Positions 2,653 to 39,400 are shown, numbered from the stretch's first letter. The stretch is DNA of 64,000 nucleotides from Candidatus Peribacteria bacterium (GCA_028286915.1 JAQBQQ010000017.1:4524-68523), one strand, 5' to 3'. The notes: a model not told the origin generated them from the letters alone. Numbers and translations: made by a program.

Positions 2653-3045
2653 TTACGCAGGCAGCGGCTCATTGAACCCCAGTACGTTCTGAATATTCGC
2701 CATGACAGTCTTGAGCGAAATTTGGGACTTCATGTAGCAGTCGCGGGCGCCGAGCTTCTTGGCATGTGCTAGGTGCTCCGGCTGTGATAGGTTGGTCATT
2801 ACCATAACCGGCGTATCTTTATTGATGGTGGCAGCTTTTTCTTCCAGAACCATATAGCCGTCTTTCATTGGCAGAATAATGTCCAGCAGGACAAGATCAA
2901 ACTTGGTCTTGATGAGCATGTCTATGGCCTGTTGGCCATCGGCACAGACAGTTGGCTCAAAACCGTTCTTCATCAGCTTGATGTAGAGCGTTGTCTGGAG
3001 GGCTTTTTCGTCCTCTACAATGAGTATTTTCTTTTTGTCTGCCAT
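2653..3045 (-). CDS. receiver-only response regulator (CheY-like)
   Basis: KKILIVEDE...DLVLLDIILPMKDG receiver motifs and no output domain. ATG at 3045 sits 7 nt downstream of a TATAAT. Confidence 0.85.
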   Translation of the reverse strand: MADKKKILIVEDEKALQTTLYIKLMKNGFEPTVCADGQQAIDMLIKTKFDLVLLDIILPMKDGYMVLEEKAATINKDTPVMVMTNLSQPEHLAHAKKLGARDCYMKSQISLKTVMANIQNVLGFNEPLPA

Positions 3046-3052
3046 ACACACT

Positions 3053-3081
3053 ATTATAGAGGATTTTGGGTTTTTTTGCAA
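3053..3081 (-). promoter_or_regulatory. sigma70-like promoter TTGCAA-17-TATAAT, 7 nt from the ATG (leaderless)
   Basis: Minus-strand read: -35 TTGCAA (3076-3081), 17-nt spacer, -10 TATAAT (3053-3058), then 7 nt to ATG 3045. Confidence 0.6.
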
Positions 3082-3160
3082 TATGGCCGCTTTAGACGGC
3101 TTAAAGAGGCAATAGCGCTACTATTTACTTATAGGGAGCTTTTTACGCTACTATAGGCGC

Positions 3161-3902: not shown

Positions 3903-4874
3903 TTGCATATGCGCGTTCTCTCCGGACTTCAGCCATCGGGTACTATGCATTTGGGGAACTACTTTGGTTCCATTAAGCCGAATTTTGAATGGCTGGGCAA
4001 AGCCGATGAGAATCTGTTTTTCATTGTGGATTTGCACGCTCTTACAACCGTGCGTAACCCGGATGATCTGCGAAAGTTCCGGCGCGATGCATTGCTGGAT
4101 TTTCTGGCCTGCGGGTTTGATCCGGCGAAGGCAATTATTTTCTACCAGTCCGACGTTTTGGAGCATACGGAGCTTATGTGGATTCTGTCTACGCTTACGC
4201 CCATGGGACTCCTGGAGCGGGCTGTCAGCTATAAAGACAAAGTGGAAAAGGGGATTTCTGCAACGGCCGGATTGTTTACGTACCCGGTCCTCATGGCGGC
4301 GGATATTCTGCTCTACGATGCGAATGTAGTTCCGGTCGGGAAGGATCAGAAGCAGCATGTGGAAATGACGCGTGACATAGCCATTAAGTTTAATAATGAA
4401 TTCGGTGATACATTCGTTATCCCCGAGCCGCAGATTCGCGAGGAGGTAGCGGTTGTTCCGGGTACCGACGGCCAGAAAATGAGTAAGAGTTATGGTAATA
4501 CCATTCCCATTTTTGGTGAAGAGAAAGATATAAAGAAGGCAATTATGAGCATTGTGACGGATTCCCGGGAAGCAACGGCGCCTAAAGATCCGGATACTAC
4601 GATTACGTATCAGATTCATAAGCTGTTTTTGTCGGGTACCGATGCAGCTGCTTTGGCCGATGAATACAGAAACGGCCTGATGTACGGCGAAGGGAAGAAG
4701 CGCTTGTTTGAAGCATATCTGGATGCATTCGGACCCATGAGAGCAAAGCGCGCCGAGCTGGAGAAAAATGATGATCTCTTACAGCAGATTGCGGCCGATG
4801 GTGCGAAGAAAGCCCGGCTGATTGCAGGCGCGACGATGGAAAGGGTGAAGAGAGCTGTCGGGTTGATTGGTTGA
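3903..4874 (+). CDS. trpS: tryptophan--tRNA ligase
   Basis: RVLSGLQPSGTMHLGNYFG (HIGH-type motif) and KMSKS motif (GQKMSKSYGN). 323 aa. Confidence 0.95.
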   Translation: MHMRVLSGLQPSGTMHLGNYFGSIKPNFEWLGKADENLFFIVDLHALTTVRNPDDLRKFRRDALLDFLACGFDPAKAIIFYQSDVLEHTELMWILSTLTPMGLLERAVSYKDKVEKGISATAGLFTYPVLMAADILLYDANVVPVGKDQKQHVEMTRDIAIKFNNEFGDTFVIPEPQIREEVAVVPGTDGQKMSKSYGNTIPIFGEEKDIKKAIMSIVTDSREATAPKDPDTTITYQIHKLFLSGTDAAALADEYRNGLMYGEGKKRLFEAYLDAFGPMRAKRAELEKNDDLLQQIAADGAKKARLIAGATMERVKRAVGLIG

Positions 4875-4954
4875 TTGGTTTACTGGAATATATTTTATTA
4901 TTAGTTATTTCCAATCAACAAATTAACCAATAAACGAATCCATATATTCATTCT

Positions 4955-26974: not shown

Positions 26975-27124
26975 ATGTGGATTATAGGATATATAATTGC
27001 TAGTTTATATAGCATGACTACTGATGAGGATATGGAAGATATTAAAGCGATTAAAGAAAGCATGAATGAGCCGACTATTTCTTTTTATGAGGCATTTTTA
27101 CCAGTTGACCAAGCGATAATCTAA
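26975..27124 (+). CDS. possible 49-aa ORF in an AT-rich insert
   Basis: MWIIGYIIASLYSMTTDEDMEDIKAIKESMNEPTISFYEAFLPVDQAII, with GGGAGGG 8 nt upstream. No homology recognised. Confidence 0.2.
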   Translation: MWIIGYIIASLYSMTTDEDMEDIKAIKESMNEPTISFYEAFLPVDQAII

Positions 27125-27130
27125 TTAAAT

Positions 27131-27197
27131 GTTTGCGTATGCCCCGGTTCACAGACGCAAACCCGGCGTCGTCGCAGATGAGGAGGAGAGAGGGCAT
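27131..27197 (-). pseudogene. orphan 5-prime fragment of a YdjC-like paralog
   Basis: Encodes MPSLLLICDDAGFASVNRGI, then diverges. A roughly 65-nt imperfect direct repeat of 26908-26971 (MPSLFLICDDAGFASVDRGI). Confidence 0.6.
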
Positions 27198-27213
27198 AGA
27201 AGATTATAATTTT

Positions 27214-27801
27214 TTATTCCATCAAACGGAACCAGTCACGCATTGTAAGTTGTAATCTTACAATTTCATCATCAGCAAGTTGGCTACAATGGGCTATTGG
27301 ACCTCTGAGGATATTTAAATTAGACATAACTCTTTCTACTGCTTTAATGCTTGAAAAAATTGAAGCAAATACATCCCAATTATTTTTTATAATTTCGCCC
27401 AATTCTCCGAAAGTGCAAAAATCAATCGGCTCTTCAGATCGTGGTGTTACAGCAGAGTCGATTTCTCTCTTTTGCCTTTCTTCGGCAACTTTCCTTAACT
27501 CTGCTTTGATTCTATGGCTTAACCACCAATTTGTGCCTTCTGCAGCACTTAATGTTGCAGTTATTAATCTCCTAACCGTTTTTTCTAAAGAGTAAAAAGT
27601 TTCATAATGCGGAGCCATAATTGCTGCTTCATTTTTTATATCTTGTTCAATTTGTGGATAGTAGGTTTCATCAGCTTCAATTGTATTTTTATGTCCACGG
27701 CTAAGATCTATTCCATATTTTTTTTCCACTTGATCTAGTTCATGCTCTATGAGCTGACTTGTCATTGAAAAATGTTTTATGGAATTAATAATGTTGCTCA
27801 T
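27214..27801 (-). CDS. Swt1-like HEPN domain protein (predicted RNase)
   Basis: Rx4H motif NILRGPIAH (R166/H171, codons 27289-27306), plus NWW and IIKNNWDVF blocks typical of Swt1-type HEPN. About 32% GC. Confidence 0.75.
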   Translation of the reverse strand: MSNIINSIKHFSMTSQLIEHELDQVEKKYGIDLSRGHKNTIEADETYYPQIEQDIKNEAAIMAPHYETFYSLEKTVRRLITATLSAAEGTNWWLSHRIKAELRKVAEERQKREIDSAVTPRSEEPIDFCTFGELGEIIKNNWDVFASIFSSIKAVERVMSNLNILRGPIAHCSQLADDEIVRLQLTMRDWFRLME

Positions 27802-28460
27802 CTATCTATAAGGTGATCGCGTAAGCTTTTAAATATTGCATTAAAAACTGCGATATCTGAAGTCGCAGGTAAATTCAAATTAATTGTATAACCAAGTTTA
27901 ATATCGATACTTTTTTTATCTACCTCTTTTATGGGAGAAAATTTTTGTTCAAAATCTGGTGTTGGCTCACTCTCTAAGACATCTTTTTCGTTTATATCAT
28001 CAAAATTAGCAAGACTGCGTAAAGCTTTGAATGAACCTATTATTGATTTAACTGATGAGGAACTGGCATCTAAGCCGGTAGCTTGAACAATTACACCTTT
28101 TAACTCAGCATCAGAAGCATCATGCACATATTCATTTATTTCATACAAAGCTGCATAGCCTTTTCTTATCCCTTGAGCTGCAGCATGGGGCCTCAATTGT
28201 TCATTTCTAAATTCCTTATATAAATCTGTAGGTGTACCATCGGCATTTAAGAATCCTGTCCTTTTTAGAAAAGGAATAATAGGTCTGGCTGAGCCTCCTT
28301 TTAATGCAAGTTTAGTCGAAAGAAAATCTTGAGTAAAACGATCTGGCGTTGAAGCTGTTTTAATCTTTTCTAAAGTTTTTGTTATAATACCATAAGCGTT
28401 TACATAAGGTACGTTTATTCCTCCATTTTGACCTGCACTTAATGTTTTCGGATTTGTCAT
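27798..28460 (-). CDS. DUF5343-like protein, partner of the HEPN protein
   Basis: TPDRFTQDFLSTKLALKGGSARPIIPFLKRTGFL block as I remember it for DUF5343. Stop overlaps the HEPN start (ATGA). Confidence 0.55.
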   Translation of the reverse strand: MTNPKTLSAGQNGGINVPYVNAYGIITKTLEKIKTASTPDRFTQDFLSTKLALKGGSARPIIPFLKRTGFLNADGTPTDLYKEFRNEQLRPHAAAQGIRKGYAALYEINEYVHDASDAELKGVIVQATGLDASSSSVKSIIGSFKALRSLANFDDINEKDVLESEPTPDFEQKFSPIKEVDKKSIDIKLGYTINLNLPATSDIAVFNAIFKSLRDHLIDR

Positions 28461-28466
28461 AAATGC

Positions 28467-28478
28467 AATTGTACAATT
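28467..28478. promoter_or_regulatory. perfect palindrome AATTGTACAATT overlapping the -10 (TACAAT) of the HEPN operon
   Basis: Minus-strand read: TTGCAT-16-TACAAT-7 nt-ATG(28460). The palindrome covers the -10, as in autoregulated TA operons. Confidence 0.5.
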
Positions 28479-28520
28479 CTATGGGGTATATGCAAATTTA
28501 GTTTTATTTAATTTATCCAT

Positions 28521-28566
28521 TTGACATCCCATCTCACACACCATAACATTCAACCAAATGGTTGAA
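28521..28566 (+). promoter_or_regulatory. arsR promoter TTGACA-17-TAACAT plus inverted repeat TTCAACCA-AA-TGGTTGAA over the start site
   Basis: -35 at 28521-28526, -10 at 28544-28549, ATG 28558 (8 nt later). IR 28549-28566 resembles ArsR/SmtB TGAA..TTCA operators. Confidence 0.6.
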
Positions 28567-28893
28567 CTTTCTTTGGGACTCAGCTTGGACAATATCTTCG
28601 CCTCGTTGGCCGACCCGACGCGCAGGGATATTCTGCGGCAGGTAGCCATAAAGGAGCTGTCGGTATCGGACATTGCCAAGGCGTATAATCTCACTTTTGC
28701 CGCCATCTCCAAGCACCTCAAGGTTCTGGAAAGGGCCAAGCTGATAACCAAGCGTAAGGAGGGGCGTGAACAGATTGTGCAACTGGCGCCGTCTACCATG
28801 AAGGACGCTACAGAATACCTGCGCACCTATGAAAAACTCTGGAACGACCGGTTCGATGCATTGGATGCTTACTTAAAAACTCTTCCCAAATAG
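28558..28893 (+). CDS. ArsR/SmtB-family transcriptional regulator
   Basis: LADPTRRDILRQV...LSVSDIAKAYNLTFAAISKHLKVLERAKLI winged-HTH signature. Confidence 0.9.
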   Translation: MVELSLGLSLDNIFASLADPTRRDILRQVAIKELSVSDIAKAYNLTFAAISKHLKVLERAKLITKRKEGREQIVQLAPSTMKDATEYLRTYEKLWNDRFDALDAYLKTLPK

Positions 28894-28935
28894 CCAAGAC
28901 TCAAAACTCAAGATTCAAGATTCATCCCCCTTTCT

Positions 28936-29376
28936 ATGACTCCCTCCACTCTCGACCTCACTATTACCCGTACATTCTCCGTCCCGCGCGAAGCCGTTTG
29001 GCTGGCATGGACGAACGGCGACCGCATACGGCAGTGGAGCTGCCCGAAGGATTTTGAAATTACACTGGGTGAAACGGATTTGCGCGTTGGCGGAACGTAC
29101 CGTTGTGTCATGGTGGCACCGGATGGAACAGAACATATTGTGGTGGGGGAATATAAAGAAATGGTGGAGCCTGAGAAGCTGGTGATGACCCATGCCTGGG
29201 AAAATGATGGTGAAGCCGGCCCCGAGACAATTGTTACCGTACATTTGGCGGATAACGGCGACGGCACGACCACCATGATGTTTCACCAGACCGGCTTTTT
29301 ATACGAAGATGACCGCGACGGGCATAGAGACGGCTGGAACGAATGTTTCGACAAGCTGGAAAAACTTCTTTCATGA
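28936..29376 (+). CDS. SRPBCC/AHSA1 (Aha1-like) domain protein, paralog 1
   Basis: TITRTFSVPREAVWLAWTN...W N-terminal signature. Confidence 0.85.
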   Translation: MTPSTLDLTITRTFSVPREAVWLAWTNGDRIRQWSCPKDFEITLGETDLRVGGTYRCVMVAPDGTEHIVVGEYKEMVEPEKLVMTHAWENDGEAGPETIVTVHLADNGDGTTTMMFHQTGFLYEDDRDGHRDGWNECFDKLEKLLS

Positions 29377-35242: not shown

Positions 35243-35740
35243 TTATGCTGTCATGGAACCATTTTCCTTTTTCTTTGAAACAACCGCCATCCAGCGTAGC
35301 TGAATATCCGTATTTTGCTTGGCATACCATACGTCATCATAATCCATCCATAGACGCATAAATATCAGTTTTTCGATTTTTTCCAGTGTGCCAAATTCAG
35401 GATCGGCAAGAAGAATATGGTCTTTCTGTACACTATCCACGACGCTGAAATGTCCCATATATCCATACTTCATCCACGATACGATAATCACGGCATTCTC
35501 CTTGTTTGCTCGTCTAAGATCCGTCCAAGACGTATTCCTTTTTGCACGTACTCGTAGCCCGAGCTTCTTTATTGTATGTACAAGATCAATATCAGTAAGA
35601 CCATCTTTGCGTTTATATTCAGATACTCTCGCTATCTCTTTGAACGATATAGGCAAACCCAAATAATCTACGGCCATTTTGATAGATGTCGGACCACAAT
35701 CGGAATCGTCTATTTGTTTTAATGGCAAAATCTTTATCAT
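35243..35740 (-). CDS. peptidase C39-like (papain-fold) domain protein
   Basis: QIDDSDCGPTSIKMAVDYLG catalytic-Cys context and a downstream GHFSVV His. Confidence 0.65.
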   Translation of the reverse strand: MIKILPLKQIDDSDCGPTSIKMAVDYLGLPISFKEIARVSEYKRKDGLTDIDLVHTIKKLGLRVRAKRNTSWTDLRRANKENAVIIVSWMKYGYMGHFSVVDSVQKDHILLADPEFGTLEKIEKLIFMRLWMDYDDVWYAKQNTDIQLRWMAVVSKKKENGSMTA

Positions 35741-35785
35741 ACAAGCAGTTTATATGAAGAACGACTGACTTAATAACTTAATATA

Positions 35786-35816
35786 TGGAGTGGGTTACTG
35801 GAATCTATTACAGCCG
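35786..35816 (-). repeat. tRNA-Gly 3-prime-end-like repeat, copy 1
   Basis: TGGAGTGGGTTACTGGAATCTATTACAGCCG. Shares the exact 12-mer GGGTTACTGGAA with copies 2 and 3. Lies immediately 3-prime of the GNAT stop. Confidence 0.6.
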
Positions 35817-36290
35817 TCATGAGTCCTTCTGGGAGCCTATGTCTCTGAATGTAAGCTCGATCATTCCATCTTGATTGGGGGTGATAGGGCAACATGCCCA
35901 TCCATTTTTCTCAAAAAAAGTTTTTGCTTTGGGATTCCTAACATCGACAAAAGTCTTCCACATTTGCTCCGGCTTCAAAGGGTGTAGCTTTATCAGTTCA
36001 TCCAGTGCATCAGAGCCAATGCCTTTACCACGATGAGTTGGCTTTACTGCAAAATCAGTAATGAAATAAGCAGGATGCTCTGAATCTGGAAGTATTACAC
36101 CAATTACTGCTACCAGATCATTTCCTTGAAAAACACTATAATGGCATCCATCAGCTTCCTGCATTACAGCATGAAGCCATTCATCATCTTTTTCCATCGG
36201 CCCAAGGTGTAGATTCAATTCGGAATCGGCATACCAGGATTGGTACTCTGAAAAATCTTCTTTTCTAAACTTAGAAAACTGCAATTGCAT
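35817..36290 (-). CDS. GNAT-family N-acetyltransferase
   Basis: AVKPTHRGKGIGSDALDELI acetyl-CoA binding motif. TATAAT lies 6 nt before the ATG. Confidence 0.8.
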   Translation of the reverse strand: MQLQFSKFRKEDFSEYQSWYADSELNLHLGPMEKDDEWLHAVMQEADGCHYSVFQGNDLVAVIGVILPDSEHPAYFITDFAVKPTHRGKGIGSDALDELIKLHPLKPEQMWKTFVDVRNPKAKTFFEKNGWACCPITPNQDGMIELTFRDIGSQKDS

Positions 36291-36368
36291 GGCCGAATTA
36301 TACCGCAGTTATGTTCCAGTTGCCGGTTACATTTTAAAACATTTCAAATAGCTCAATGGAATTGAATT

Positions 36369-36404
36369 TAGGTGGGGCGGGTTACTGGAAAATCTTACAA
36401 ACAC
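36369..36404 (-). repeat. tRNA-Gly 3-prime-end-like repeat, copy 2
   Basis: TAGGTGGGGCGGGTTACTGGAAAATCTTACAAACAC, downstream of the DHFR-like gene. Confidence 0.6.
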
Positions 36405-36444
36405 TTGTCGGCCGTAGCCCAGAGGCGAAGGATGATGGGTGCTT

Positions 36445-37011
36445 CTAGGATTTTGTGTCCATGACAGGCGCATACCGAAGGATGATGCCACCAGTGGAAA
36501 GAGGACGATCTTCCAGTAATTTGAGCTTGTGGTAGGGTGTCCCTTGAGGGAATAAGAGTTTCCCTTTGCCGAGAAAGATAGGTGCCACAAGAAGCCGGTA
36601 CTCATCGAACAACTTCTCCTTCATCAAAGTTTCCGAAAGATTGCCGCTGCCGAACACAAACATGTTTCCGGTTCCTTGCTGCTTCAATGCCGGAATCTCC
36701 GCAGCTGCATCTCGCACAATCGTGGTGTTGTTCCAATCGGCCTTGTTCAAACTACGAGAACAGACGAGTTTGCGAATGCTATTCATGAGCGCGGTTGTCT
36801 CGCCTTCACCCTCTGCGGTCTGCCAGTAAGCGGCCATTCCTTCGTACGTAGTTTTGCCAAATACCAACATGTCAGCCGATTTGAGCTGTTCGATGCCAAA
36901 TTGCTTCACCTCATCGCCCCAGATAATGTCGTGGAATGGCAAGTCCCAACTCTTCTCACCCTCAAAATAGCCATCGATGGTGATCACATTCCACATGATG
37001 AGCTTTCTCAT
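36445..37011 (-). CDS. dihydrofolate-reductase-like (RibD C-terminal domain) protein
   Basis: MRKLIMWNVITIDGYFEG... and the MFVFGSGNL pattern. Start trimmed to the ATG at 37011. Confidence 0.8.
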   Translation of the reverse strand: MRKLIMWNVITIDGYFEGEKSWDLPFHDIIWGDEVKQFGIEQLKSADMLVFGKTTYEGMAAYWQTAEGEGETTALMNSIRKLVCSRSLNKADWNNTTIVRDAAAEIPALKQQGTGNMFVFGSGNLSETLMKEKLFDEYRLLVAPIFLGKGKLLFPQGTPYHKLKLLEDRPLSTGGIILRYAPVMDTKS

Positions 37012-37080
37012 AGCGGAAGAGTAGCAGGGTTGTATTTCTGTCACTAGTTCAAAAAACAAATGGCTTACATAAGCCATAAA

Positions 37081-37116
37081 TTAGGTGGAGCGGGTTACTG
37101 GAATCTGTGACAACCG
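37081..37116 (-). repeat. tRNA-Gly 3-prime-end-like repeat, copy 3 (best copy)
   Basis: TTAGGTGGAGCGGGTTACTGGAATCTGTGACAACCG compared with the tRNA 3-prime end TGGAGCGGGTGAACGGAATCGAACCG at 38940. Same orientation as the tRNA. Confidence 0.65.
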
Positions 37117-37128
37117 TGATCTGTCCGG

Positions 37129-37611
37129 CTAGGGAGTCGTGTCCGTAACGGAACGAGCTCTATAGCCTGGATGCACTCGCGGTCGAATCTTCTGATAAGT
37201 GGCAATTTTCTTGAGCAATTCCCGAAGCGTTTCTTGTTCACTTGTATTTAGCCCAACGCATAATTCTTTCTCATGGTCTTGCGCAATCCGTCCGAGATTT
37301 TGGAGTGTATTTTGCCCCTCTTTTGTCAGGCGCAGTGCGAACGACCGACGATTGTTCGGCCGCGAATGACGTTCTACCAGCGTACGTTTCTCCAGTTCAT
37401 CGAGAAGAAGCACAAGGCGACTGGGAAACATGCCAAGCAAGTCGGCCAGCGCTCGTTGCGTCATATCGGGTTCCTGGCCGAGGATGCGTAGAATCCCCGC
37501 GAGAGGTGGTGTCAGATCGAGTGGCCCTAGTCGTTCGGCAAAGCGCATTGAGGCATATGCGCCGATTTGCGAAAGCAGGAATGCCGAGCTCGAATACGAT
37601 TTCTTCTTCAT
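37129..37611 (-). CDS. MarR-family transcriptional regulator
   Basis: Winged-HTH region LTPPLAGILRILGQEPDMTQRALADLLGM...LVERH. ATG at 37611. Confidence 0.85.
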   Translation of the reverse strand: MKKKSYSSSAFLLSQIGAYASMRFAERLGPLDLTPPLAGILRILGQEPDMTQRALADLLGMFPSRLVLLLDELEKRTLVERHSRPNNRRSFALRLTKEGQNTLQNLGRIAQDHEKELCVGLNTSEQETLRELLKKIATYQKIRPRVHPGYRARSVTDTTP

Positions 37612-37612
37612 C

Positions 37613-37627
37613 GTTATTGACAATAAC
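37613..37627. promoter_or_regulatory. 7-1-7 palindrome GTTATTG-A-CAATAAC in the marR / membrane-protein divergent promoter region
   Basis: Overlaps -35 TTGACA (37617-22) of the plus gene (-10 TAATGT 37640-45) and the -10 TATTGT of marR (TTTACA-17-TATTGT-8-ATG). Confidence 0.6.
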
Positions 37628-37654
37628 AATTCATGAGATTAATGTAAAGTACAT

Positions 37655-38347
37655 ATGGCAATTTCTGACACGCAAAACACAGGCACTCGTCATGCGGGGC
37701 CAAATCCAGGCACCTTGGCTATCGTTTTTACAGTGCTCTTCTTCGCTGGACTTCTCTCCATGACTCTCTTCACAGGGGGTGCGTATCCCACGCCATTCAA
37801 ATCTTCTGAGGAGATTGCCGCCTTCTTCCGAAGTTATCCATTTCAGGTTTCCCTAGGTGCATTCTTCCAGTTCGGTTCTGCTATTCCTCTCGGCCTCTAC
37901 ACCGCTACGATGACGAGTCGTCTGCGCTTTCACGGCGTGCGCTCGGCCGGAGTGGATATTGCCCTCTTTGGCGGCTTCTCGGCTTCTCTCCTGACGCTTG
38001 TCTGGACACTGATACAGTGGACGCTCGCACAGCCAGCTGTCACTTCTGACGGCACGCTGGTACGGGCACTCTTTTCTTTGATCTTTGCATTGGGTGGACC
38101 AGGATATAGTGTTCCACTTGGGCTCCTTATTGCAGGAATTTCTGTTCCTGCCTATTTCTTCCGCCTGCTACCGCGATGGGTGTGTTACTTTGGCTTCGTG
38201 TTGGCAGCCATTGGAGAATTAAGCTCTCTAGGTCTTGTCTTCCCGCAGGTGTTCTTCTTAATCCCACTGACGCGCTTCCCGGGTTTTCTTTGGCTCATTG
38301 CTGCCGGGTACACGTTGCCGAGTCGCACTAGAGCATCATCGAACTGA
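37655..38347 (+). CDS. integral membrane protein (6 TM), divergent from marR
   Basis: 230-aa hydrophobic ORF. Family not recognised. Confidence 0.55.
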   Translation: MAISDTQNTGTRHAGPNPGTLAIVFTVLFFAGLLSMTLFTGGAYPTPFKSSEEIAAFFRSYPFQVSLGAFFQFGSAIPLGLYTATMTSRLRFHGVRSAGVDIALFGGFSASLLTLVWTLIQWTLAQPAVTSDGTLVRALFSLIFALGGPGYSVPLGLLIAGISVPAYFFRLLPRWVCYFGFVLAAIGELSSLGLVFPQVFFLIPLTRFPGFLWLIAAGYTLPSRTRASSN

Positions 38348-38455
38348 CATAGAAAGGCCGGATAGCTAATTCACCGATATTTTAGTTGTATTTCTGCTTG
38401 CCCATACAAAATAGAATGGCTTATATAAGCCTTCGCTGCTACTTTCAGGAAATAT

Positions 38456-38474
38456 AGCGATCCCGCTACGGCGC
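38456..38474. repeat. left arm of a 19-bp inverted repeat flanking the GIY-YIG gene
   Basis: AGCGATCCCGCTACGGCGC. The reverse complement of 38864-38882 is AGCGATCCCGCTTCGACGC (17/19 match). Confidence 0.55.
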
Positions 38475-38479
38475 GATCC

Positions 38480-38719
38480 TTAGAGATATTTCTTAGCAAA
38501 GGCTCTGCCCGATTGGGTTTTTAGGTACCGCTCAAAGTTTTCCGCCTTTTCTTTATCCGTGAACGCAAGATAGCTCTTGATGCGCCAGGGTTTGAATTTA
38601 TTGGTGTGAATGCTTTCGCCGGCATTATGTTCCGCAAGTCGTCTTTGTAGATCGGTAGTCATTCCTACATACCAATGATGTGCGTTCAGCACGGATTCCA
38701 AGATATAGACGTAATACAT
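38480..38719 (-). CDS. GIY-YIG nuclease-superfamily small protein (UPF0213-like)
   Basis: YYVYILES...WYVGMTTDLQRRLAEHN GIY-YIG signature. 79 aa. Confidence 0.85.
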   Translation of the reverse strand: MYYVYILESVLNAHHWYVGMTTDLQRRLAEHNAGESIHTNKFKPWRIKSYLAFTDKEKAENFERYLKTQSGRAFAKKYL

Positions 38720-38863
38720 AGCGGACCAATACTCTGTGATATTGCTATAACTATAAAGATGTACTTAACATGAAAATCTGTGGCACCAGTGATTATATGC
38801 ACTGAGAAGCCACAAAAGGTGTTCCATGCCTCAATGGAACGCCAGCTTACCACCAGCGCAATC

Positions 38864-38882
38864 GCGTCGAAGCGGGATCGCT
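38864..38882. repeat. right arm of the 19-bp inverted repeat flanking the GIY-YIG gene
   Basis: GCGTCGAAGCGGGATCGCT. See 38456-38474. Confidence 0.55.
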
Positions 38883-38939
38883 GCACTATGGAAATCAAAA
38901 TTTTTTCATGCTCGTCAGCGCCTATACCGCGAAGACGGA

Positions 38940-39014
38940 TGGAGCGGGTGAACGGAATCGAACCGTCGTCTTCAGGTTGGAAACCTGAGGTAATAGCCGT
39001 TATACGACACCCGC
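38940..39014 (-). tRNA. tRNA-Gly (anticodon UCC), CCA encoded
   Basis: Hand-folded cloverleaf. Acceptor GCGGGTG/CACCCGC, anticodon arm TCAGG-TTTCCAA-CCTGA, T-arm GACGG-TTCGATT-CCGTT, 3-prime TCCA. 75 nt. Confidence 0.9.
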
Positions 39015-39115: not shown

Positions 39116-39400
39116 TTATTTTAAGAGTATTTTTAAGGCTTTTGCATCATCAACTTTCCGCCATGGGTGGCAGGTGAGTAGCCGGCATATCAATAGGAAA
39201 GAGCCTATGATAAGACCTTTTTCATAGATTACTTTTTTACCATATTCTGAACACGTTGGCTCGTGCCGGCAATAACCGTATGGGTATAAGTGACGCAGCG
39301 GGCCGTGATCCGGCGATAGTGTCTGCTGGTAGAAGCTGATGGCGGCTACGGCACTGCGACGGGGGAGAAGCCGGAGTTGTTGAATAATGAGTAAAGCCAT
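39116..39400 (-). CDS. yidD: membrane protein insertion efficiency factor YidD
   Basis: ISFYQQTLSP...CRHEPTCSEYGKKVI signature. Confidence 0.85.
   Translation of the reverse strand: MALLIIQQLRLLPRRSAVAAISFYQQTLSPDHGPLRHLYPYGYCRHEPTCSEYGKKVIYEKGLIIGSFLLICRLLTCHPWRKVDDAKALKILLK

Follow-up and report, generated by a model that had tools for sequence, protein, structure and literature searches.

Elements ending in a tRNA-Gly 3' end separate the units of cassette-like gene arrays beside tRNA-Gly genes in Peregrinibacteria

We analysed a 64,000-nucleotide (nt) stretch of a Candidatus Peribacteria genome (GCA_028286915.1, JAQBQQ010000017.1:4524-68523; hereafter the window) in which three repeats, R1, R2 and R3, separate small genes on one side of a tRNA-Gly(UCC) gene (Table 1). 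The repeats belong to a conserved element family that combines a tRNA-Gly 3' end with a longer sequence that is not tRNA-like, lies beside tRNA-Gly genes in a fixed orientation and borders modular units whose content varies between genomes; no recombinase gene lies nearby. On balance we regard it as probable that R1-R3 are attR/attC-like junctions of cassettes accreted at tRNA-Gly by a site-specific recombinase working in trans, a mechanism that we infer from this arrangement. Serial integration or accretion at the tRNA, as proposed in an earlier note on this DNA, is supported, the motif not being dispersed and gene order being variable, with the corrections given below.

Results

R1-R3 are copies of a conserved element of about 68 nt

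The exact 12-mer GGGTTACTGGAA that the earlier note had recognised in three repeats on the same strand is indeed present at 35792, 36379 and 37092, always on the + strand. Allowing up to one mismatch we counted four matches against 0.19 expected, a number reached in none of 100 shuffles. In a repeat search R1-R3 and the 3' end of the tRNA fell into one 20-nt family, and the 3'-terminal 20-mer of the tRNA, searched with up to three mismatches, matched only itself and R3 (17/20; 0.00 expected); counted by hand, R1 agrees with it at 16/20 and R2 at 14/20 positions. The shared unit is larger than the approximately 35 nt assumed before, as the copies have a consensus of about 68 nt, TGGAGCGGGTTACTGGAA-nn-TATTACAAC-nnn-GATG-n7-CTAGGAG-n5-GTC-n-TGA. 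R1 and R3 are of type A and R2 is of type B, the same element with an insert of about 30 nt, a REP-like (repetitive extragenic palindromic) hairpin at approximately 36402-36432 that is common to L016, L025 and L036 in the alignment (L numbers denote loci). An nhmmer profile of the element detected only these three copies in the window, all within 1.4 kb, so that the look-alike after trpS (4871-4891), once suspected to be a relative, is not a member of the family.

Scanning one genome per species with the core TGGRGYGGGTTACTGGAA gave 72 stretches, 26 of them in metagenome-assembled genomes (MAGs) labelled Peregrinibacteria or Peribacteria; to these we added L030, labelled 'bacterium', which has the same architecture. 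Every MAG that carries the 68-nt extension bears one of the two labels, L030 excepted, and the other TGGRGYGGGTTACTGGAA matches are chance occurrences in coding sequence or real tRNA genes (tRNA-His in Saccharibacteria, tRNA-Gly(UCC) in the Peribacteria MAG L021). With 26 further loci from a metagenome scan the family comprises 85 elements in 53 loci, at a density of up to 5 copies per 8 kb. R1-R3 are closer to each other and to approximately 80 copies elsewhere than to the tRNA of the window; they are thus not degenerate copies of that gene, as had been thought, being instead a conserved element whose core corresponds to another tRNA-Gly allele. Outside the core, element identity is 0.666 within arrays and 0.667 between genomes, indicating that the copies were acquired independently and are not local duplicates, and local tandem duplication or concerted evolution was rejected on this basis.

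The core derives from tRNA-Gly and the arm does not

The first 19-20 nt of the element are the T-loop-to-CCA end of a tRNA-Gly allele present in some Peribacteria, and the 3' end of the tRNA-Gly(UCC) of L021 is identical to the 19-mer of the element. T-stems of local tRNA-Gly genes vary among genomes; the element core stays TTACTGGAA. In the window, element and local tRNA share only TGGAGCGGGT plus GGAATC, and a crossover must therefore lie in the acceptor/CCA segment. The match between R3 and the tRNA end described in the earlier note stands for its 10/10 block and GGAATC; the additional 'ACCGT' is not significant (z = -0.4 to 1.9 for the extension aligned to tRNA bodies). The remaining approximately 48 nt, the arm, are not tRNA-like (z = -0.4 to 1.3 against four tRNA-Gly bodies), similarity to a tRNA-like copy in L106 being marginal (p ~0.05; z up to 1.9 over all comparisons).

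Two groups of loci have cores that agree more closely with their own tRNA. In L102/L103 the core matches the local tRNA-Gly(CCC) at 19/20 positions, ending at the T-loop, and in L106 it shares a lineage-specific base with the local, L021-type UCC tRNA-like copy. Judged by sequence, these cores have the classical attL/attR pattern expected after integration if the crossover falls within the T-loop or 3' of it. The L106 copy itself (3030-3103), which resembles tRNA-Gly(UCC) and closes the array at its far end, is not called by ARAGORN, and its T-stem, by eye, pairs poorly; the 5' strand of this T-stem, CATGG, is identical to the block at that place in the element. It could be an intermediate between tRNA and element.

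Several other identities of the element were tried and rejected. The Rfam tRNA model gave no match to the elements even at E <= 10 and ARAGORN found nothing tRNA-like at R1-R3, calling the real tRNA only; together with the z scores of the arm this led us to reject the whole element as a pseudo-tRNA. With RNAalifold the mRNA-sense strand had no consensus structure and the opposite strand a negligible one (-3.7 kcal/mol), arguing against a structured RNA or an attC-like hairpin. Covariation of the 'AACCGT' of the element with the local T-stem was inconsistent across loci. Finally, the element might have been a primer-binding site as in long-terminal-repeat retroelements, the 18-mer consisting of TGG and 15 nt complementary to the tRNA 3' end; against this, elements lie in direct orientation beside the tRNA gene, no reverse transcriptase is among the listed family matches, and most genomes have no tRNA that matches all 18 nt.

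Arrays are anchored at tRNA-Gly

A tRNA-Gly gene, usually UCC and sometimes CCC or GCC, is present in 27 of the 53 loci. In 26 of these 27 it is located on the arm side and co-oriented with the tRNA-like core, at a distance of 419-6586 nt to the nearest element. Most loci that have no tRNA-Gly are short contigs, long arrays or cases with the element at the sequence edge; L016 and L059 are one contig with nine element copies. Contigs of 263 kb-1.07 Mb each carry a single exact core, beside tRNA-Gly, which on the 1.07-Mb contig is 0.6 kb away from a tRNA-Gly(UCC). The motif is therefore not dispersed like a REP element, a concern raised in the earlier note: exact cores are found only beside tRNA genes. 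An intact tRNA gene is followed on its 3' side by a direct repeat of its own 3' segment both in the window (17/20) and in L102 (19/20). In the window, ARAGORN called a single tRNA gene, the tRNA-Gly(UCC), which is the anchor of the array and its attB/attI-like site.

Only in L004 (3867-4766) does the tRNA-Gly(UCC) run opposite to the element, an arrangement that may reflect an inversion between the two tRNA-like sites.

Elements delimit short, mostly single-gene units

Neighbouring elements are 545-4368 nt apart (median 1.2 kb), and 23 of 32 units contain one open reading frame (ORF). Approximately 72% of the ORFs adjoining an element are co-oriented with the tRNA, so the loci are arrays of short, mostly co-oriented cassettes that each end in the site. 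Co-oriented ORFs end in one of two ways, either a few nt from the edge of the element or about 8 codons inside it at a conserved TAG; this stop lies at offset +43 in 13 cases and close to it in near variants, and a single frame is used throughout. About one third of the ORFs stop at this TAG, the share to be expected when a nearby stop exists in that frame alone. The repeats thus do not sit right after stop codons, as had been described for the window, but overlap the last 7-12 codons of the genes, with R2 and R3 supplying the TAG; in R1 the TAG is mutated to CAG and the GNAT ORF ends 12 nt beyond, at TGA 35817-35819. Neighbours on the opposite strand start 0-40 nt from the element, and the called ORFs of L056 and L092 start with an ATG that follows the AGGAG of the element on the other strand. 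Each gene had also been credited with its own close-coupled promoter; a consensus scan found a promoter-like site for the MarR gene and none for the GNAT and RibD_C genes, so that these individual promoters stay putative.

The CTAGGAG-n5-GTC-n-TGA block, e.g. at 37127-37150 in the window, provides minus-strand genes with a TAG stop and a tail of 6-7 codons, [FLV]xD[TI]xS. That this tail is a functional C-terminal peptide was rejected as the block is equally conserved where it is untranslated, beside plus-strand genes; in addition, only about one third of the adjoining minus-strand ORFs use the TAG, as expected when a single frame enters it, and RibD_C homologues elsewhere have other short tails.

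According to Pfam scans the cargo is accessory. GIY-YIG (7 of 74 array ORFs) and GNAT (5 of 74) proteins are joined by RibD_C (2), MarR, P-loop kinases, Na/H, MFS, YibE/F and cation-efflux transporters, GrpB, an FAD oxidoreductase, C39 peptidase and unknowns.

Units are modular and content varies between genomes

The RibD_C unit of the window and its counterpart in L042 share 69% nt identity in an alignment that extends between the two cores and no further, spanning element arm, gene, its 5' region, the terminator hairpin and the next core. The neighbours differ, being MarR and GNAT genes in the window and ORFs of 328 and 337 amino acids (aa) in L042. The border core of L042, the 17-mer TGGAGCGGGATACGGGA, is the 3' end of tRNA-Gly(CCC), although a UCC gene anchors the array. 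The same gene forms the first unit after tRNA-Gly(CCC) in L102/L103 (86% aa identity), is followed by an element and a DUF4256 unit in L106/L107, and lies in a UCC array with no adjoining element in L104/L105. Homologues in other phyla (Leptospira, a Spirochaetae MAG and a Woesearchaeota archaeon) are 65-70% identical to the window protein and have different short tails, indicating that the element replaces the natural tail and stop. This high conservation across distant lineages suggests, at the level of sequence, wide horizontal spread of RibD_C.

Many genomes share synteny on the YidD-tRNA side (clusters C0, C1, C2 and C6), with C2 adjoining the tRNA in L007, L036, L040 and L073 and also in L104. 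The far side of the tRNA differs in every genome, including L003, L038 and L051, whose tRNA is nearly the same as that of the window. Identical order in all relatives, which would have spoken against integration, is hence not what we observed: behind the conserved YidD-tRNA-Gly flank gene content is polymorphic between relatives. Strain-level polymorphism within the window organism was rejected, the sole other contig available (L001) having the identical arrangement.

GIY-YIG module and associated hairpins

A separate, small module abuts the trailer of the tRNA in the window and consists of a GIY-YIG gene enclosed by inverted repeats that are built from halves of a REP-like motif. The same layout is found in L016 (2229-2641) and L098 (6427-6891), with repeats of 22-26 nt, and the module was also noted for L085. 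In L007, L040, L030 and L016 it has the tRNA end on one side and, on the other, a repeat of 13-21 nt of the local tRNA 3' end; L104 has a local 13-nt tRNA-end copy approximately 110 nt from the tRNA with no gene between. By its REPtron- or casposon-like layout the GIY-YIG unit looks like a miniature mobile module that would home to the tRNA-Gly 3' end.

The REP-like motif is a second repeat family, a hairpin of the form ccggc-GTAG-(variable stem and loop)-CGAAG-gccgg, whose stem changes are clearly compensatory (CC/GG, CT/AG, CCC/GGG, CTCCTC/GAGGAG, TCAGCC/GGCTGA, TTCCATGCG/CGCATGGAA) and which has no Rfam match. It resides inside type B elements and directly 3' of tRNA-like cores and real tRNA-Gly genes: in the window in R2 (36402-36432) and in the tRNA trailer (38926-38939), elsewhere in L016, L036, L038, L039, L053, L055, L059, L091, L093, L096 and others.

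An intrinsic-terminator-like hairpin lies directly 3' of the R3 core in tRNA sense and has a second copy in the window. Hairpins of this kind follow cores in L016, L051, L006, L040 and L042 and the real tRNA-Gly(GCC) in L061; given this recurrence after cores and a real tRNA, 'core + terminator' behaves as a unit.

Features of the window

The coordinates are collected in Table 1; the flanking genes agree with those given in the earlier note. MarR is the last gene of the tRNA-proximal unit, which also holds a divergent ORF of 230 aa with no family match in Pfam or NCBIfam. The C39-like peptidase gene just past R1 is probably the outermost cassette, one that has no recognisable terminal element; a C39-containing ORF serves as cassette in L078. 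A G+C trough at 27001-29000 (0.35-0.42 versus approximately 0.50 elsewhere) is approximately 7-9 kb away from the array.

Table 1. Positions of elements, genes and signals at the tRNA-Gly(UCC) locus of the window
Feature	Position	Strand	Basis
Element R1, type A; core 35786-35805	35783-35853	+	nhmmer 63.1 bits
Element R2, type B; core 36373-36392; RibD_C TAG stop 36445-36447	36370-36467	+	nhmmer 38.5 bits
Element R3, type A; core 37086-37105; MarR TAG stop inside, 37129-37131	37082-37153	+	nhmmer 60.2 bits, E = 6e-17
tRNA-Gly(UCC), encoded CCA	38940-39014	-	ARAGORN; Rfam tRNA 60.7 bits
Promoter-like site upstream of tRNA-Gly(UCC), 11/12 match	39060-39033	-	consensus scan
C39-like peptidase gene	35243-35740	-	Pfam Peptidase_C39, 7.6e-15
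GNAT acetyltransferase cassette gene	35817-36290	-	Pfam Acetyltransf_1, 3.6e-12
RibD_C/DHFR-family cassette gene	36445-37011	-	Pfam RibD_C, 9e-19
Terminator-like hairpin ATGGCTTAnATAAGCC(AT) + T-run	37060-37077	-	terminator scan
MarR-family regulator gene, ends in R3	37129-37611	-	Pfam MarR, 2.5e-10; NCBIfam MarR-type
230-aa ORF	37655-38347	+	ORF list
Second copy of terminator-like hairpin	38416/38418-38431		terminator scan
GIY-YIG module, 22-nt inverted repeats 38456-38477 and 38861-38882	38456-38882	-	repeats 91% complementary
GIY-YIG gene, 79-aa product	38480-38719	-	Pfam GIY-YIG, 3.5e-15
YidD gene, conserved chromosomal flank 5' of tRNA	39116-39400	-	Pfam YidD

Discussion

Accretion at the tRNA-Gly 3' end

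The arrays consist of a tRNA-Gly gene followed by repeats of cargo plus element, the cargo mostly being one gene in the orientation of the tRNA. In tRNA sense the element comprises a conserved non-tRNA arm of approximately 48 nt and then the last 19-20 nt of tRNA-Gly, from T-loop to CCA. Cassettes bearing it would recombine with the tRNA-Gly 3' end or with a resident element, presumably by site-specific recombination of the T-loop/acceptor class, catalysed in trans by a recombinase that would be encoded elsewhere. New units would stack beside the tRNA and old junctions would persist as attR/attC-like sites. The chemistry of this reaction, its trans-acting enzyme and any present activity of the system are what we infer here from the layout of the loci. 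Whole integrative elements are a poorer analogy for the units than integron-like cassettes or integrase-less remnants in tRNA-seeded islets.

Several results weigh against this reading. Neither the window nor approximately 400 kb of loci contain a tyrosine or serine recombinase according to tblastn and Pfam scans, which for the window agrees with the earlier note. We used XerD, IntI1 and gamma-delta resolvase as tblastn probes; for IntI1 and XerD neither the window nor any locus gave a match below E = 0.008, weak N-terminal probe matches fell on an ORF with the CAP family as its single Pfam match, and integrase families were absent from the Pfam summaries for the array ORFs, including individual scans of the larger ones. 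Searches of IMG/VR and of phage and plasmid collections revealed no copy of the element, and a phage or plasmid attP was rejected on these grounds; the two IMG/VR hits of the 18-mer lie in the coding sequence that also accounts for the Acinetobacter chromosomal stretch L014, and neither contig has a tRNA gene. No excised circle or empty site was observed. Arrays of the same species are identical across samples (L030/L074/L089; L006/L077/L098; L102/L103; L104/L105), giving no sign of ongoing turnover. Finally, in most genomes, including that of the window, the core mismatches the T-stem of the local tRNA, leaving only about 10 nt of contiguous identity for a crossover.

Alternative explanations

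The GIY-YIG module offers a nuclease- or transposase-type route in which it would home to the tRNA-Gly 3' end, cuts or target duplications of 13-21 nt would generate the partial tRNA copies, and repair would insert cargo. The GIY-YIG family outnumbers all others in the arrays, usually adjoins the tRNA and is the only nuclease-like gene that recurs there, which makes it a minority candidate for the enzyme; the inverted repeats around the gene in the window, L016 and L098, and the short local tRNA copies beside the module, or in L104 beside no gene, fit the proposal. The gene, however, is found in only about one third of the tRNA-anchored arrays, the 79-aa protein is a bare catalytic domain that has no DNA-binding domain, and target duplication explains neither a non-local core nor a conserved arm, so we consider this route unlikely. 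Conservation might instead reflect a cis-acting RNA or DNA signal for the adjoining gene, such as a 3' untranslated region (UTR), a tRNA-like signal for processing or stability, or a translational or stop-codon module. Overlap with gene ends and provision of the TAG, the AGGAG..ATG at the ORF starts of L056 and L092, and an end that mimics a CCA-bearing acceptor would all suit such a signal. Yet for approximately 28% of the elements the adjoining gene runs the other way, with its 5' end towards the element, which then cannot be its 3' UTR, RNAalifold found no consensus fold on the mRNA-sense strand and Rfam no match at E <= 10, the element is restricted to the neighbourhood of tRNA-Gly rather than occurring at gene ends generally, and RibD_C homologues outside Peribacteria do without the tail; we judge a cis signal to be quite improbable as the main reason for conservation.

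Clusters of tRNA-Gly GCC, CCC and UCC genes in some Peribacteria (L021, L102), the uncalled tRNA-Gly(UCC)-like sequence of L106 and the collinear short matches of the element to it (GGACA..TCC..GCCG..CATGGTT, p ~0.05) could speak for pseudo-tRNAs, i.e. tandem tRNA-Gly copies that decayed in an ancestral cluster and were later separated by insertions. This origin is very improbable, since the arm lacks significant similarity to the four other tRNA-Gly bodies, the Rfam tRNA model is silent, the same non-tRNA blocks are kept in 85 copies, unlike in neutral decay, and the local copy number far exceeds the number of tRNA-Gly genes. A dispersed REP-like repeat that resembles tRNA by chance, for which only the weak look-alike at 4871-4891 could be adduced, is refuted by these data: nhmmer finds no copy outside 35783-37153 in the window, the largest contigs hold one exact core each, next to tRNA-Gly, and 0.00 matches to the tRNA end as good as 17/20 are expected.

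Comparison with known systems

Accretion of cassettes at tRNA-Gly, the explanation we favour, invites comparison with integrons and CALINs (clusters of attC sites lacking integron-integrases). Like these, the loci are arrays of short, mostly single-ORF and mostly co-oriented accessory cassettes, each followed by a conserved site-like element that often holds the stop codon of the ORF. As in integrons, the array is fixed at one site beside a strong promoter, here the predicted promoter-like site upstream of the tRNA (11/12), and the cargo types overlap (GNAT, DHFR-like, glyoxalase/Ble-like). Unlike in integrons, the anchor is a tRNA gene and not attI, the element ends in a tRNA 3' end, and some cassettes carry their own terminator hairpin and are thus probably not promoterless. 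The array is not a member of the integron family, as tblastn with IntI1 and XerD revealed no IntI gene at the array and the element has neither the imperfect hairpin of attC (RNAalifold) nor, in the consensus read by eye, GTTRRRY/RYYYAAC core sites.

Integrases that target tRNA genes reportedly include a T-loop sublocation class. Identity from T-loop to CCA over 19-20 nt in L021-type genomes, L102 and L106, and a direct repeat 3' of the tRNA, are what the arrays share with this class, but they have no adjoining int gene, and the tRNA allele that the block matches is a non-local one in most genomes. They also differ from genomic islands integrated at tRNA genes in having no integrase gene in the island beside the tRNA. 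E. coli tRNA operons such as tyrT have downstream tandem tRNA-linked repeats that contain the tRNA 3' end including CCA, with no cargo between them; our literature search on these repeats returned passing mentions only. The elements resemble them as copies of a CCA-bearing tRNA 3' end downstream of a tRNA gene; the tyrT repeats, in contrast, are not known to form a lineage-wide cassette system. Dispersed REP-like repeats differ in abundance, with three element copies in the 64-kb window and one exact core on the 1.07-Mb contig.

Our literature searches turned up nothing that describes this element; among published concepts, the tRNA-seeded island model put forward for Prochlorococcus tycheposons (bioRxiv 10.1101/2020.12.28.424599) comes closest. 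Tycheposons and remnants like cis-mobilizable elements (CIMEs) likewise contain direct partial copies of the tRNA 3' end inside the island, build up cargo beside the tRNA in streamlined genomes and vary in content between relatives. The units described here, however, measure approximately 1 kb and usually contain one gene, and their junction is a 68-nt element with a non-tRNA arm of approximately 48 nt that occurs across genomes whose flank proteins are 30-80% identical. Unlike in tycheposons, no integrase, polymerase or primase is among the listed Pfam matches of the examined loci, where L084 has one helicase-domain ORF.

Implications

A bolder reading, which we put forward as a tentative possibility and no stronger, is that Peregrinibacteria may possess a gene capture platform analogous to the integron. 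The tRNA-Gly 3' end would be both attachment site and source of transcription, the unstructured 68-nt element would be the cassette site, and the enzyme would be unlinked and possibly non-canonical, i.e. a chromosomal recombinase or the GIY-YIG/inverted-repeat module.

Bacteria of the candidate phyla radiation have tiny genomes and their gene gain is little understood; the locus is a lineage-wide, recognisable hot spot, and the element a simple sequence handle on the flexible gene pool of Peregrinibacteria in metagenomes. If only a fossil, the element still records the formation of tRNA-seeded islets in streamlined genomes. If it is a working recombination site, the arrays would represent an integron-like capture system made of different parts, with the recombinase still to be found. 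Should the capture-platform reading be true, cassette-array systems would have evolved a second time, independently, in bacteria whose genomes measure approximately 1 Mb.

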